A stretch of DNA of 64,000 bases from a virus: IMG/VR virus record IMGVR_UViG_3300049595_004693, positions 1 through 64,000 of that record. One strand, given 5' to 3'. The first letter of the stretch is position 1, and each line of letters opens with the position of its first letter. Shown in pieces: positions 59,986-64,000 of the stretch. The notes under the pieces are model-generated. The model had not been told where the DNA came from, did no database searches, and was given only the letters and a program-made list of their open reading frames with translations. A program made the position numbers and the translations under genes.

Positions 59986-60069
59986 AGTTTTGCCTTAAGA
60001 TGAGGCAGAAGCGGCATCCAATAACGGACCCGCAATCCACTATATCCTATAGGACTATTGGAGTATAAC

Positions 60070-61011
60070 ATGAGTGAAATCCTTCCCACCTCGGCTCCCG
60101 CCGAGACTGCGTCCGAATCCGCTAACGAACAAGTAGAACAACAAGAACAAGAATTAGGTCAAGAGACCGCGGCTCCCGCCGCGTCCACAGAGCCCACCAA
60201 AGAAGAAATCAAGGAGCTTAAAAAGCGCCTTAAGATTAAGGTGGACGGCGAAGAGTTTGAAGAAGAAATCGACCTCGCTGACGAAGAAGGGCTCAAGCGC
60301 CACCTTCAGATGTCTAAAGTAGCTCAGAAGCGCATGCAGGAGTTTAGCTCCCTTCGTAAAGAAGTAGAAGATTTCGTGGGTGCCATGAAAGACCCGAAAC
60401 AGGCACGCGCCATTATGCGCGAACTGGGCCTCAATGAGCGAGAACTTGCCGAGTTGATTATCAATGATGCTATTGAGGAGTCGAAGAAGACACCTGAACA
60501 GCTTGCTATGGAGAAGATTGAGCAAGAAAAAGAAAAGCTTCGTAAGGAGCTTGATGCCATTAAGAAAGAAAAAGAAGAGAGTGAACTTCGCGCTAAGCAG
60601 GAGCGTTTCGAGAAGGAACTCGAAAACGAAATGATTACGGCGATTGACAAAGCAGGAGTACCTGTGTCTCCTTACATGATTAAGCGTACGGCAGACTTTA
60701 TGTCTCTAGCTTTGGAAAATAATATCAAGTTGAGCCCAGCAGAGATTCTTCCTTTAGTAATCTCCGAAGTTAAGGGTGATATTAAAAAGCTCGTTGCCGA
60801 CATGCCTGACGAAGTTCTTGAGGAATACCTCACAAAAGATCGCCTTTCTAACTATCGTAAGAAGGCTATCGCTAAGGCTAAGGAAGTGGCACAGGCGGTG
60901 GGTCAATCTCAAGTCAAGGCCACGGGTCAGTCTGAGCTTAAGACCAAAGAAGAAAAAGCTGCGAAAGATGAGCCGAAGAAAATGTCAGTCCGTGACTGGT
61001 TAAAAAGCTAA
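60070..61011 (+). CDS. Capsid scaffolding protein
   Basis: Acidic coiled coil with KIKVDGEE; directly upstream of the MCP; GGAG SD before ATG 60070. Confidence 0.8.
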   Translation: MSEILPTSAPAETASESANEQVEQQEQELGQETAAPAASTEPTKEEIKELKKRLKIKVDGEEFEEEIDLADEEGLKRHLQMSKVAQKRMQEFSSLRKEVEDFVGAMKDPKQARAIMRELGLNERELAELIINDAIEESKKTPEQLAMEKIEQEKEKLRKELDAIKKEKEESELRAKQERFEKELENEMITAIDKAGVPVSPYMIKRTADFMSLALENNIKLSPAEILPLVISEVKGDIKKLVADMPDEVLEEYLTKDRLSNYRKKAIAKAKEVAQAVGQSQVKATGQSELKTKEEKAAKDEPKKMSVRDWLKS

Positions 61012-61034: not shown

Positions 61035-61072
61035 AGGGATTACTGTATTTTTGCAGTAATCCCTTTTATTTT
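61035..61072 (+). terminator. Rho-independent terminator
   Basis: AGGGATTACTG/CAGTAATCCCT stem plus T-tract. Confidence 0.8.
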
Positions 61073-61081: not shown

Positions 61082-61211
61082 GATTAGATAAAGACTTCTG
61101 CTTTATTTCCGGGGGACGCGAGAGCTATCCGCTGAGCTTATAAAGGGAATATCTAGTAATCAAATAATCGTATCAATAGAATAATTTCATTTTTACTTTA
61201 AGGAGTAAACA

Positions 61212-61361
61212 ATGGCTACTGCAAATACTATGGATACCCTTAACGGCCTGTTTAAGGAAGTCTACGCTGACAAAGTTGAGCGTTTGATTCCTGAAGGTCT
61301 TAAGCTGTATTCTGCTGTTCCCTTCGTCGGCAAAGAAAAAATGCCAGGAAACAACTACCAT
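61212..61361 (+). CDS. Major capsid protein, exon 1 (50 aa)
   Basis: AAGGAG SD; MATANTMDTLNGLFKEVYADKVERLIPEG...PGNNYH, followed by TAA at the splice site. Confidence 0.85.
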
Positions 61362-62176
61362 TAATGTTGGTGGTAGGTGGGTGAAAATCCCAAAACCAAC
61401 TGGTTTATAAATCTTCTCTAATTGACTTGAAACTCCTGAAAACAGGAAAACAAGGCGGAAGACGAAAGTCACCGTGAGAGACTAAACGAGAAGACGCCGA
61501 AAGGCGATGCGATAGTCCGAACTACTGAAATAAAATAGACGAATCCTCTAGAGGAATAAGTCGTGAAAAATTACAAAGTGTACCTAATACGGGAAAAAGA
61601 ATCCTGCGATATTAAATACGTAGGCTTGACTAGCCAATCTTTATATAAAAGATTTAGTCAGCATAAGTTAAAACGTCGCATAACCGATCAAAAGTATCAA
61701 ATAGAGTTGGTTGCTGAAGAGCTGTCATTAGAAGAGGCTGTTCAGCTAGAAAAGTTGTTGATAAAGCAATATGATCTTTTGATTAAAGGTTGGAACGTCT
61801 CTCCCGGATCAGTCAACGGATACTCTAATCTACACTCGGACCAACTTAAAGAAAAATGGTCTAGAGAAAGAAGAGGGGTTCCTGTGTCCGAGGAGCACGC
61901 CGAAAAAAATAGGCTCGCTCGATTAGGTAGAAAAAACTCGCCCGAGCATAATAAAGCTATTAGCGAAAAAACAGCTAAAGCGGTGATATGTTTGGAAACC
62001 GGAAAAGTATACCCATCAGCCAGAGCGGCTGCTAAAGAGTTGGGAGTATCTTATTGCAAGATAAGCTTGTGCTGCACCGGCAAAAGAAAAACTACGAGGG
62101 GATTACACTTTAAATTTGTGGAAACAGTAGAGACTAGCAGAAATGACTAGTCCCATCTAACGATGAGTAACACATG
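61362..62176 (+). mobile_element. Group I self-splicing intron (815 nt)
   Basis: P1 CUACCAU/GUGGUAG with U-G; P10 GUUG/CAAC; P3 CUUCUC/GAGAAG; P7 GAGACUA/UAGUCC; P8 CGCC-GAAA-GGCG; terminal G. Confidence 0.92.
61563..62150 (+). CDS. Intron-encoded GIY-YIG homing endonuclease with NUMOD3/NUMOD1-like domains
   Basis: VY...YVG.T...KRF..H...E..LI...GWN; SEEH/SPEH repeats; CLETGKVYPS..AA. Confidence 0.88.
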   Translation: MKNYKVYLIREKESCDIKYVGLTSQSLYKRFSQHKLKRRITDQKYQIELVAEELSLEEAVQLEKLLIKQYDLLIKGWNVSPGSVNGYSNLHSDQLKEKWSRERRGVPVSEEHAEKNRLARLGRKNSPEHNKAISEKTAKAVICLETGKVYPSARAAAKELGVSYCKISLCCTGKRKTTRGLHFKFVETVETSRND

Positions 62177-63244
62177 CAACCAGTCGTGCTCGCAAGCGAA
62201 CACGGCTTCTCTCATGGCGGTCAAGACGACGGCGCGTTCACTCTGAACAACGCTGTTGCTGGTCAAGTCAAAGACGCAACGGTTAAGGGCTATCAAATCG
62301 TCCTCCGCACCGTTATGTCTTACTCTGTCCTCTCTCGCGCATCGTCTGCTGGCGCACGCGCTTTCGAAACTGCTACGAAGCATATTCTCGCGAATATGAT
62401 TCGTTCGTTCGGACGCCGCGCTGAAATTCAGTGCATGTATGGACAAGTTGGTTTGGGCGTTATCGCGTCTACTTCGTCCCCTGCTATCGTTATCAGCACT
62501 GCTGAATGGGCTGCTGGTATCTGGTCGGGAATGAAGAATCTTCCAATCGAAATTCGTAGTTCTGCTGGCGTACTTCGCGGAACTGCTGTGGTTTCTTCGA
62601 TTGATCTCGATACTCGCACAATCACTCTTGATGCTCTTCCTGGCGGTACTGTTGCCACCGACGTTGTACATTACCTAGGTGCATACAACAACGAAATGGC
62701 CGGCCTCCACAAGATCATCTCAAACTCCGGATCGCTCTTCGGCATCGACGCAGCTCAGTACGAACTGTGGAAGGGTAACACCTATTCCGCAGGTTCGGCA
62801 GCTCTTTCGTTTGCTAAGATTCAATCGGCAGTCGCTAAGGCTGTTGAGAAGGGTCTTGATAGTGACGTTAAGGTACTCGTCAACGTGAAAACGTGGGCAA
62901 ACCTCCTCAACGAACAAGCAGCTCTCCGCATGTACGATCAATCGTATAAGCTTGCTGAAGCTGAAAACGGAGCACAAAGCATCAAGTTCCACGGTCAAAA
63001 TGGTATCGTGGAAATCGTTCCTTCGATTTACGTCAAGGAAGGGTATGCTTACCTTGCTCCGTTCGAAGATCTTCTCAAAGTCGGTTCGACGGACATGACC
63101 TTCAAGCTCCCTGGCTCTGAAGATCAGTTCTTCCGCCAACTCGAAAACAGCGCTGGCGTAGAACTTAGATGTTATTCCGATATGAGTTTGTTCTCTTGCG
63201 CCCCCGGCAAGATGACGCTCATTAGTAATATAGTAAATAGCTAG
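62177..63244 (+). CDS. Major capsid protein, exon 2 (spliced product 405 aa)
   Basis: In-frame continuation QPVVLASEHG; follows the scaffold; strong codon bias; terminator downstream. Confidence 0.85.
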   Translation, partial: QPVVLASEHGFSHGGQDDGAFTLNNAVAGQVKDATVKGYQIVLRTVMSYSVLSRASSAGARAFETATKHILANMIRSFGRRAEIQCMYGQVGLGVIASTSSPAIVISTAEWAAGIWSGMKNLPIEIRSSAGVLRGTAVVSSIDLDTRTITLDALPGGTVATDVVHYLGAYNNEMAGLHKIISNSGSLFGIDAAQYELWKGNTYSAGSAALSFAKIQSAVAKAVEKGLDSDVKVLVNVKTWANLLNEQAALRMYDQSYKLAEAENGAQSIKFHGQNGIVEIVPSIYVKEGYAYLAPFEDLLKVGSTDMTFKLPGSEDQFFRQLENSAGVELRCYSDMSLFSCAPGKMTLISNIVNS

Positions 63245-63277: not shown

Positions 63278-63311
63278 GAGCCCCCGGATTTAATTATTTG
63301 GGGGCTCTTTT
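63278..63311 (+). terminator. Rho-independent terminator
   Basis: GAGCCCCC/GGGGGCTC stem plus T-tract. Confidence 0.85.
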
Positions 63312-63344
63312 GTATCATCTTAACCCTGATTTGCGGTATTGTTC

Positions 63345-63358: not shown

Positions 63359-64000
63359 ATGAACATAATCTACAAAATCACTAATAAAATAAACGGCAAG
63401 TTATATATCGGATCTACCACAATGTCATTAGAACGTAGGTGGATGATGCATATTAAGTATGGTAAAAACATCCTAAGCAGAGCTATTAAAAAATATGGTG
63501 AGCATAACTTTCTAGTAGAAGAATTATGCTGTGTTTTAGATATTAATGAACTTTATGTTGTTGAGGGTTATTTTATTAATTTGCATAATGCTTTAGTCCC
63601 CTCTGGATATAATATATTAAGCCCCTCAAAAAATGAGGTCCCCTCGTCTCCCAGTTACAGAAAAGAGTGTGCTGCCCGAACAAAAAACAGGCACGCGAAT
63701 TCAGAGCAGCATAAAAAAATGATGAGCGGAATTAGTATTTACGTAGAGAATAAAAAACGAAAGGTTCTGGCTGTAGACATTAGAGATGGTAAAACAATTA
63801 CTAAATTTGACACTGTCCACGCGGCGGAACAAGTGGATCCTTCTCTGCATCCCTGTCTTAAAGGTGATACCACCTATTCTCTTAACTACTGCTGGTTCTA
63901 CGACACCGGCGAATCAGACGAGCACTATATCCAAAAAGCTTTAGAAAGAGTTCGCTTTTGGAGAAAGTACGAAGTGTCTCCGTTCTACGGTATTCATAAA
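63359..64000 (+). CDS. Free-standing GIY-YIG endonuclease (3' truncated; not in ORF track)
   Basis: MNIIYKITNKINGKLYIGST...ERRW..H...AIKKYG..NF...E...I...GYN. Confidence 0.88.
   Translation, partial: MNIIYKITNKINGKLYIGSTTMSLERRWMMHIKYGKNILSRAIKKYGEHNFLVEELCCVLDINELYVVEGYFINLHNALVPSGYNILSPSKNEVPSSPSYRKECAARTKNRHANSEQHKKMMSGISIYVENKKRKVLAVDIRDGKTITKFDTVHAAEQVDPSLHPCLKGDTTYSLNYCWFYDTGESDEHYIQKALERVRFWRKYEVSPFYGIHK

Follow-up and report, generated by a model that had tools for sequence, protein, structure and literature searches.

A group I intron within the predicted HK97-fold major capsid gene of an uncultured freshwater phage

How can a phage make a full-length major capsid protein from a gene whose reading frame closes after 50 codons? 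The question is raised by IMG/VR virus record IMGVR_UViG_3300049595_004693, a 78.8-kilobase (kb) genome estimated to be 93% complete, of which the first 64 kb (positions 1 to 64,000, hereafter the window) were analysed. Near-identical DNA is present in lake-water metagenomes, as found by a run search. Between positions 61212 and 63244 of the window, the original prediction placed a major capsid gene split by a group I intron. This is borne out by colinear homologues, by covarying helices, and by contigs from related RNA that carry the expected joint. We consider it highly probable that the capsid gene is interrupted by a group I intron whose splicing restores a protein of 405 amino acids (aa).

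The frame that opens at ATG 61212 runs to ...CUACCAU, which ends at 61361. An in-frame UAA (61362-61364) follows directly, so that unspliced RNA would give only a 50-residue peptide. Downstream, the list of open reading frames (ORFs) contains a 356-aa frame that starts at ATG 62174 and ends at 63244. Joining the exons in silico (61212-61361 plus 62177-63244) gives a protein of 405 aa that reads ...MPGNNYH/QPVVLASEHG..., where the slash marks the joint; this is the product that had been predicted (...PGNNYH/QPVVLA...). The junction peptide of the predicted spliced capsid protein is ...MPGNNYHQPVVLASEHG.... The parts of the gene are the following.

61200..61205, plus strand: Shine-Dalgarno sequence AAGGAG of the capsid gene, 6 nucleotides (nt) 5' of the ATG, read from the sequence.
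61212..61361, plus strand: capsid exon 1, 50 codons, 3' end ...CUACCAU; from the ORF list, aligning to residues 1-50 of uninterrupted 402-411-aa homologues.
61362..62176, plus strand: group I intron, 815 nt, opening with the in-frame UAA and with G as its last base; RF00028 match at 61351-61538 (21 bits, E 0.0076), and RNA contigs that skip exactly 61362-62176.
62177..63244, plus strand: capsid exon 2, 355 codons and a stop codon, with CAAC at its 5' end as the exon strand of P10; from phrog_14242, homologues, and the HK97 fold predicted for the 76%-identical protein P0002.
63278..63312, plus strand: terminator-like hairpin GAGCCCCC...GGGGGCUC followed by a U run, 3' of the capsid gene, read by eye from the sequence.

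The capsid ORF has approximately 1,500 relatives in a large protein collection; of the best 120, most are 402-411 aa long and a smaller number 334-373 aa. The joined product aligns without gaps to about 100 uninterrupted homologues across ...GNNYH/QPVVL..., and exon 1 matches residues 1-50 of the 402-411-aa proteins with no gap, as the alignment with intron-less homologues suggested by the original prediction required of a spliced gene. The joint falls in the most conserved N-terminal motif of the family, GNxYH/QPVxLG, where homologues read ...GNFYHQPVILG.... The 356-aa ORF by itself matches PHROG 14242 ('major head protein') at 1e-14, and only from about profile position 94, which indicates that an N-terminal piece is missing.

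Pfam searches of both capsid exons found no family, and a sequence profile of the capsid family found no match among PDB sequences. A blastn search of the region against a phage collection gave no match, and tblastn gave distant capsid matches only. The fold was modelled on P0002, the closest uninterrupted homologue (76% identical), with 45 relatives. The AlphaFold model of P0002 (pLDDT 83.8, pTM 0.83) was compared with the PDB by Foldseek, which returned the capsid proteins of SPO1, SU10, VP1, A-1(L) and HK97 at probability 1.00. On the strength of this model, the interrupted gene encodes a predicted HK97-fold major capsid protein, and the insertion point (residues 50/51) lies inside a predicted strand comprising residues 49-54. 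It is the single capsid gene match in the genome.

The exon and intron coordinates, the Shine-Dalgarno sequence, P1, P10, P3, P7, P8, P9 and G62176, all of which had been named in the original prediction, were found again in the sequence and the ORF list. The elements of the intron are given below; same-site copies are the 8 distinct copies of the intron found at exactly this capsid site.

61355..61376, plus strand: P1, exon CUACCAU (61355-61361) with guide GUGGUAG (61370-61376), including the wobble U61361-G61370; its loop holds the P10 guide; from the sequence and same-site copies.
61366..61369 with 62177..62180, plus strand: P10, GUUG with CAAC; from the sequence and same-site copies.
61379..61405, plus strand: optional P2 (GGG 61379-81 with CCC 61389-91) and P2.1 (AACC 61394-97 with GGUU 61402-05); from alignment A2, the Rfam alignment also putting P2 here; both are missing from most same-site copies.
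61412..61418, plus strand: 5' strand of P3, UCUUCUC, pairing with GAGAAGA 61488-61494; from RNAalifold and pair counts.
61426..61454, plus strand: P4 (CUUG 61426-29 with CAAG 61451-54) around P5 (UCCUG 61434-38 with CAGGA 61443-47); P4 from RNAalifold, P5 from the Rfam alignment.
61455..61475, plus strand: P6 (GCGG 61455-58 with CCGU 61472-75) and P6a (GAC 61461-63 with GUC 61468-70, GAAA loop); from RNAalifold.
61480..61517, plus strand: P7 (GACUA 61480-84 with UAGUC 61513-17), forming a pseudoknot with P3 and enclosing the 3' strand of P3 (61488-94) and P8; from pair counts.
61495..61498 with 61503..61506, plus strand: P8, CGCC with GGCG; from RNAalifold and pair counts.
61522..61527 with 62125..62130, plus strand: P9, CUACUG with CAGUAG, the two strands flanking the intron ORF; from same-site copies.
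62132..62152, plus strand: P9.1, GACUAG (62132-37), loop CAGAAAUGA, CUAGUC (62147-52); from same-site copies.
62154..62165, plus strand: P9.2, CAUC (62154-57) with GAUG (62162-65); read from same-site copies.
62176, plus strand: terminal (omega) G; G in 8/8 same-site copies, and the RNA joint runs from 61361 to 62177.

IMG/VR was scanned with a core motif that extends from P4 to where P7 starts, and 82 contigs matched; 46 distinct cores and the window make up alignment A3 (47 sequences). Without guidance, RNAalifold recovered P3, P4, P6/P6a and P8 from A3, with compensatory changes in 14 of the 22 pairs. When the P7 pseudoknot is included, 99.2% of cells are paired, compared with 35-48% when the partners are slid, and the covariation score of 0.462 stands against values of at most 0.109 in controls and is reached by none of 500 shuffles. 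Double changes are then seen in 14 of 27 pairs, including all those of P3 (7/7) and P8 (5/5), and both of the P6a pairs that were counted, G61461-C61470 and A61462-U61469, covary. The insert is a group I intron with a covarying P3-P9 core.

The same-site copies extend this to the helices that depend on the insertion site and the periphery, P1, P10, P9 and P9.1 being perfectly paired in 8/8. P1 keeps 7/7 pairs in four combinations (CUACCAU/GUGGUAG, UUACCAU/GUGGUAA, GUUCCAU/GUGGAAC, AUACCAU/GUGGUAU), P9 keeps 6/6 pairs in 4 sequence combinations, and P9.1 keeps 6/6 pairs in 7 different stems around the conserved loop CAGAAAUGA. P10 is present in all eight in one combination and, being invariant, is not assessable by covariation. 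At several interrupted related loci the insert opens with the same UAAUGUUGGUGG... right after ...CCAU. Two same-site copies (L158 and L107; 204 and 252 nt) have no ORF, and in these P9 is closed by a short loop. The endonuclease ORF is thus an insertion into the P9 loop, in keeping with the proposal that it is looped out of P9, whose strands at 61522-27 and 62125-30 flank it.

Two other types of insert were considered and rejected. An intein does not agree with an insert that opens with an in-frame stop and whose joint is seen in nucleic-acid contigs, and a group II intron does not agree with a covarying core of P3-P9 group I architecture and ~180 nt. As a separate observation, the P9.1 loop at 62138-62146 retains CAGAAAUG(A/U) in the window and in 7 sister copies despite a wholly changed stem. 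Such conservation over a changing stem suggests a tertiary contact.

The gene might also be split without any splicing. A free-standing endonuclease cassette would then separate a 50-aa piece from a 356-aa piece, the latter started at ATG 62174, and the two would be translated separately and assemble, as is reportedly the case for the pieces of the Aeh1 NrdA gene, which is split by mobE. Non-splicing endonuclease insertions are known in other phages (PMC7344957), and the in-frame ATG 62174, 3 nt before exon 2, is where gene callers begin their 356-aa product. However, this start is not conserved: the triplets before exon 2 in the 8 same-site copies are ATG, GTG, TTG, TAG, ATG, GTG, GGG and TAG, two of which are stops, and 62174 is not preceded by a Shine-Dalgarno sequence. 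The two same-site copies without an ORF retain the ribozyme, the core covaries as RNA, and the exact joint is present in RNA contigs. Separate translation of the two pieces is, in our judgement, very improbable, and we return to a spliced group I intron.

RNA-level data were taken from two metatranscriptome runs (X8 and X10) of one bioreactor study, as Logan contigs, and were compared with DNA runs X2 and X3. Contigs of X8 and X10 have a single joint, 61361 to 62177 ('skips 815, ends TA..TG'). It coincides exactly with the predicted splice sites, which is the expectation under splicing. The joined contig of X10 is 1,283 nt long (61150-61361 plus 62177-63216), with 212 nt on its shorter side and a depth of 9.8, above that of the X10 contigs crossing the intron borders (2.8-4.1). 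In X8 the joint lies in the middle of a 60-nt contig, 30 nt from either end. Both RNA runs also contain contigs across both intron borders. In the DNA runs, X3 and X2 (the latter an independent lake sample, 100% identical to the window), only the intron form is found.

With regard to this RNA evidence only, the joined contigs of X8 and X10 might derive from an intron-less allele of a co-occurring relative, either as DNA or as transcripts. The intron-less state is the majority form in this capsid family, the contigs are only 90-95% alike to the window, and RNA libraries can contain DNA. Against such an origin, the intron path and the joined path in X8 form a bubble in which the two have the last 30 nt of exon 1 and the first 30 nt of exon 2 in common, and the body of each exon is covered by a single contig, which fits one genotype with two RNA forms. 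In X10, moreover, the depth of the joined contig is 2-3 times that of the intron pieces. We regard an intron-less source as unlikely, and the joined contigs may well be spliced RNA of a relative.

That these contigs stem from a 90-95%-alike relative, and not from this exact strain, also bears on a further explanation, in which the intron is real and its splicing is impaired in this genome, the phage being defective or the allele decaying, with the capsid gene effectively a pseudogene. However, pairing is perfect in every tested helix of the window copy, both exons are conserved and have open frames, and the endonuclease ORF is undamaged, its domains scoring above cut-off. The same sequence recurs at 100% identity in the independent lake sample X2, and a genome estimated to be 93% complete has this one capsid gene match only. 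An impaired intron is hardly to be expected on these grounds, and a functional one remains our reading of the locus.

Several points weigh against a splicing group I intron and have to be set beside the evidence above. At the Rfam gathering threshold (RF00028, 50 bits) no match was found in the whole window, nor did Rfam find the intron in the ORF-less sister copies, including L158. A local search with RF00028 over 961 nt produced a full-length alignment to 61351-61538 at 21 bits (E 0.0076), below the 50-bit gathering score. P7 (GACUA/UAGUC) is invariant in 47/47 sequences, a consistent pairing that is outside the reach of covariation, and P4 shows invariant positions or one-sided changes only in A3. 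As there is no variation in P7 or in most of P4 and P6, covariation is silent on these helices. The RNA contigs belong to a relative that is 90-95% alike, come from one study, and are contigs, not raw reads; they could stem from DNA carry-over or from a relative that lacks the intron, and intron-less alleles are common (60/80 loci). Finally, the autocatalysis of the capsid intron and its efficiency are what we infer.

The score obtained with Rfam can be placed in context by the capsid introns of relatives. At neighbouring capsid positions there are introns of other types that Rfam does recognise, reaching 97 bits in L072 and 78 bits in L080, from which it follows that RF00028 covers the lineage of the window's intron poorly. 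A lineage model, R1, matches the intron by construction, the window sequence being part of the R1 training alignment. When R1 was run over the 78.8-kb genome in search of another copy of the lineage, the only other match, with an E value of 0.68 and broken helices, was rejected.

We propose the following course of events. The single capsid gene would be transcribed as a precursor in which the 815-nt intron separates exons of 50 and 355 codons. Through P1, which places a U-G wobble at the splice site, the guide would bind the end of exon 1, and through P10 it would bind the start of exon 2. The compact P3-P9 core would fold, and two transesterifications would excise the intron and join ...CCAU to CAACC.... 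Translation of the spliced mRNA would yield the 405-aa HK97-fold capsid protein. In co-infection, the endonuclease would presumably cut intron-less capsid alleles, into which the intron would then be copied (homing). A role of splicing as a checkpoint, which had been raised in the original prediction, is left as speculation.

The ORF within the intron has the features expected of a homing endonuclease gene.

61563..62150, plus strand: intron ORF, 195 aa, GTG start, GAGGA at 61551-55 (8 nt upstream); GIY-YIG endonuclease with a NUMOD/I-HmuI-like DNA-binding tail.

Residues 4-70 match PF01541 (GIY-YIG; 27.2 bits, cut-off 22.6), residues 148-184 match the NUMOD-like PF22083 (35.1 bits, cut-off 27), and the protein matches the homing endonuclease family phrog_314 at 3e-20. 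To judge from its sequence, this is an apparently intact gene for an I-TevI-type GIY-YIG endonuclease, and we infer its activity and target. Because the stop codon UAG (62148-50) is part of the 3' strand of P9.1, the ORF runs at its end into the ribozyme structure. A small hairpin at 61543-61556, UCC...GGA around CCUCUAGAGG, shares bases with the ribosome-binding site GAGGA of this ORF, and sister copies have a hairpin at the same place with different stem sequences. By analogy with I-TevI, for which hairpin-limited translation has been described, the hairpin may limit translation of the endonuclease.

The joined capsid protein was mapped on 80 related IMG/VR loci (L003-L082), among which 60 genes are uninterrupted and approximately 20 are interrupted. 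The interruptions in this capsid family cluster at codons ~50-83, falling after residues ~50, 53, 56-60, 66, 72-76 and 83. The capsid genes of L082, L055, L056 and L078 have two insertions each, and in L055 and L015 one gene contains two copies of this ribozyme lineage. L158 has another group I intron at 2728-2944 (RF00028, 37 bits, below gathering), about 1 kb upstream of its ORF-less capsid intron (L158:3726-3929).

Host genes of the lineage were identified via PHROGs; Pfam searches on the upstream exons of ten sister introns found no family. The tallies that follow count loci, not independent insertions, and are approximate, since exon picking sometimes chose endonuclease ORFs. Among the 82 contigs with the first motif, ~69 copies are in major head protein genes and 9 in portal genes, and 4 are unassigned. 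The head protein hosts fall into four sequence families, phrog_14242, phrog_1357, phrog_267 and a protease-capsid fusion type. A second, independent motif comprising P7/J8-7 only extends the set to at least 186 loci and at least 148 distinct cores (L083-L269). Among the matches listed, the largest host cluster is a capsid family with at least 69 loci (phrog_1357 at 4e-79), and a minority of the lineage, at least 10 loci, is found in ribonucleotide reductase genes. Over both motifs, most of the sampled loci fall in major capsid genes of at least four sequence families or in portal genes. Each copy of the lineage has its own P1 guide matched to its site.

It is possible, if not yet probable in our view, that these copies represent a large lineage of compact, Rfam-invisible group I ribozymes with a preference for phage head genes and, in the capsid family of the window, a hotspot at codons ~50-83 comprising at least five positions. 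If the bias towards head genes is true and does not result from sampling, the lineage may have adapted to mRNAs that are made late and translated heavily.

The most direct consequences concern annotation. It had been foreseen that gene callers would truncate this capsid protein, and public entry P0001 (356 aa, 95% identical) does begin with MQPVVL. Entries of 334-356 aa that start at or just after the junction comprise P0001, P0003, P0004, P0006-P0010, P0055, P0064, P0065, P0068, P0089 and P0097. Judging by where they begin, these are probably truncated calls of intron-bearing genes. Automatic annotation gives an N-terminally truncated capsid protein of ~350 aa for this phage and many relatives, and such truncation distorts phylogenies, structure predictions and proteomics searches. 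The standard Rfam model, in turn, misses a widespread lineage of such introns. With its structure, covariation and RNA joint, the locus is a well-documented example of an essential late gene for a structural protein whose expression would depend on a ribozyme.

Some neighbouring features were also observed. A free-standing second GIY-YIG endonuclease ORF lies just past the capsid terminator at 63359-64000 and runs off the window end (PF01541 at 9e-8, phrog_314 at 4e-24). Immediately 5' of it is the 10-mer TAACAAGTTA (63345-54), which is also found before the capsid gene at 61072-81. Just 5' of the capsid gene, the ORF at 60058-61011 encodes 317 aa with a very high content of Glu and Lys; it matches no family, and both this composition and the location would fit a scaffolding protein. 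A terminator-like hairpin (61035-61069) is located between this ORF and the promoter-like motif of the capsid gene.

The original prediction had called an intron in a capsid gene unusual. This is overstated, as such introns have been published for LittleE, Tuc2009 and crAss-like phages, and about a quarter of the relatives studied here are interrupted. Group I introns in phage capsid genes are already known, and this locus is a further example. By itself it thus raises no new question, and its value lies in the correction of annotation.

The td intron of T4 resembles the window's intron in several respects. Its GIY-YIG endonuclease, I-TevI, has a DNA-binding module at the C-terminus; the corresponding ORF occupies the loop of a peripheral helix and overlaps ribozyme structure at its 3' end. 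Unlike the window's intron, however, the T4 introns reside in genes of nucleotide metabolism, carry the ORF in a different loop, and have a larger ribozyme.

Among capsid-gene introns, that of the Cluster J mycobacteriophage LittleE is the closest in layout, with ~820 nt in the major capsid subunit gene of this tailed phage and an endonuclease ORF (Pope et al. 2013, PMC3706429). Its splicing was shown by RT-PCR (reverse transcription-polymerase chain reaction) and by N-terminal protein sequencing across the junction. As in the window, U is the last base of exon 1 and G that of the intron, and the spliced protein is colinear with intron-less relatives. The two differ in host phage, capsid family and insertion position. 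Furthermore, the endonuclease of LittleE is LAGLIDADG-like and encoded on the opposite strand, whereas that of the window is of the GIY-YIG type and lies on the same strand in the P9 loop. The LittleE intron is described as 'most likely group I' (PMC3706429), while the core in the window is defined by covariation. The lactococcal temperate phage Tuc2009, which has a Gram-positive host, is cited in the same paper (PMC3706429) for a group I intron in its capsid subunit gene; to the extent of that citation, it is like the window in being a tailed phage with a group I intron in this type of gene.

In the Delta and Zeta groups of crAss-like phages, group I introns are typical of core genes, including that of the major capsid protein (Yutin et al. 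2021, PMC7886860). These are, like the phage described here, uncultured phages in which introns of the major capsid gene complicate gene calling. The crAss-like introns were recognised via their endonuclease domains, and some genes have several (PMC7886860). By contrast, the window contains a single intron, in an unrelated freshwater phage of ~79 kb, and this intron is supported by RNA structure and by RNA contigs.

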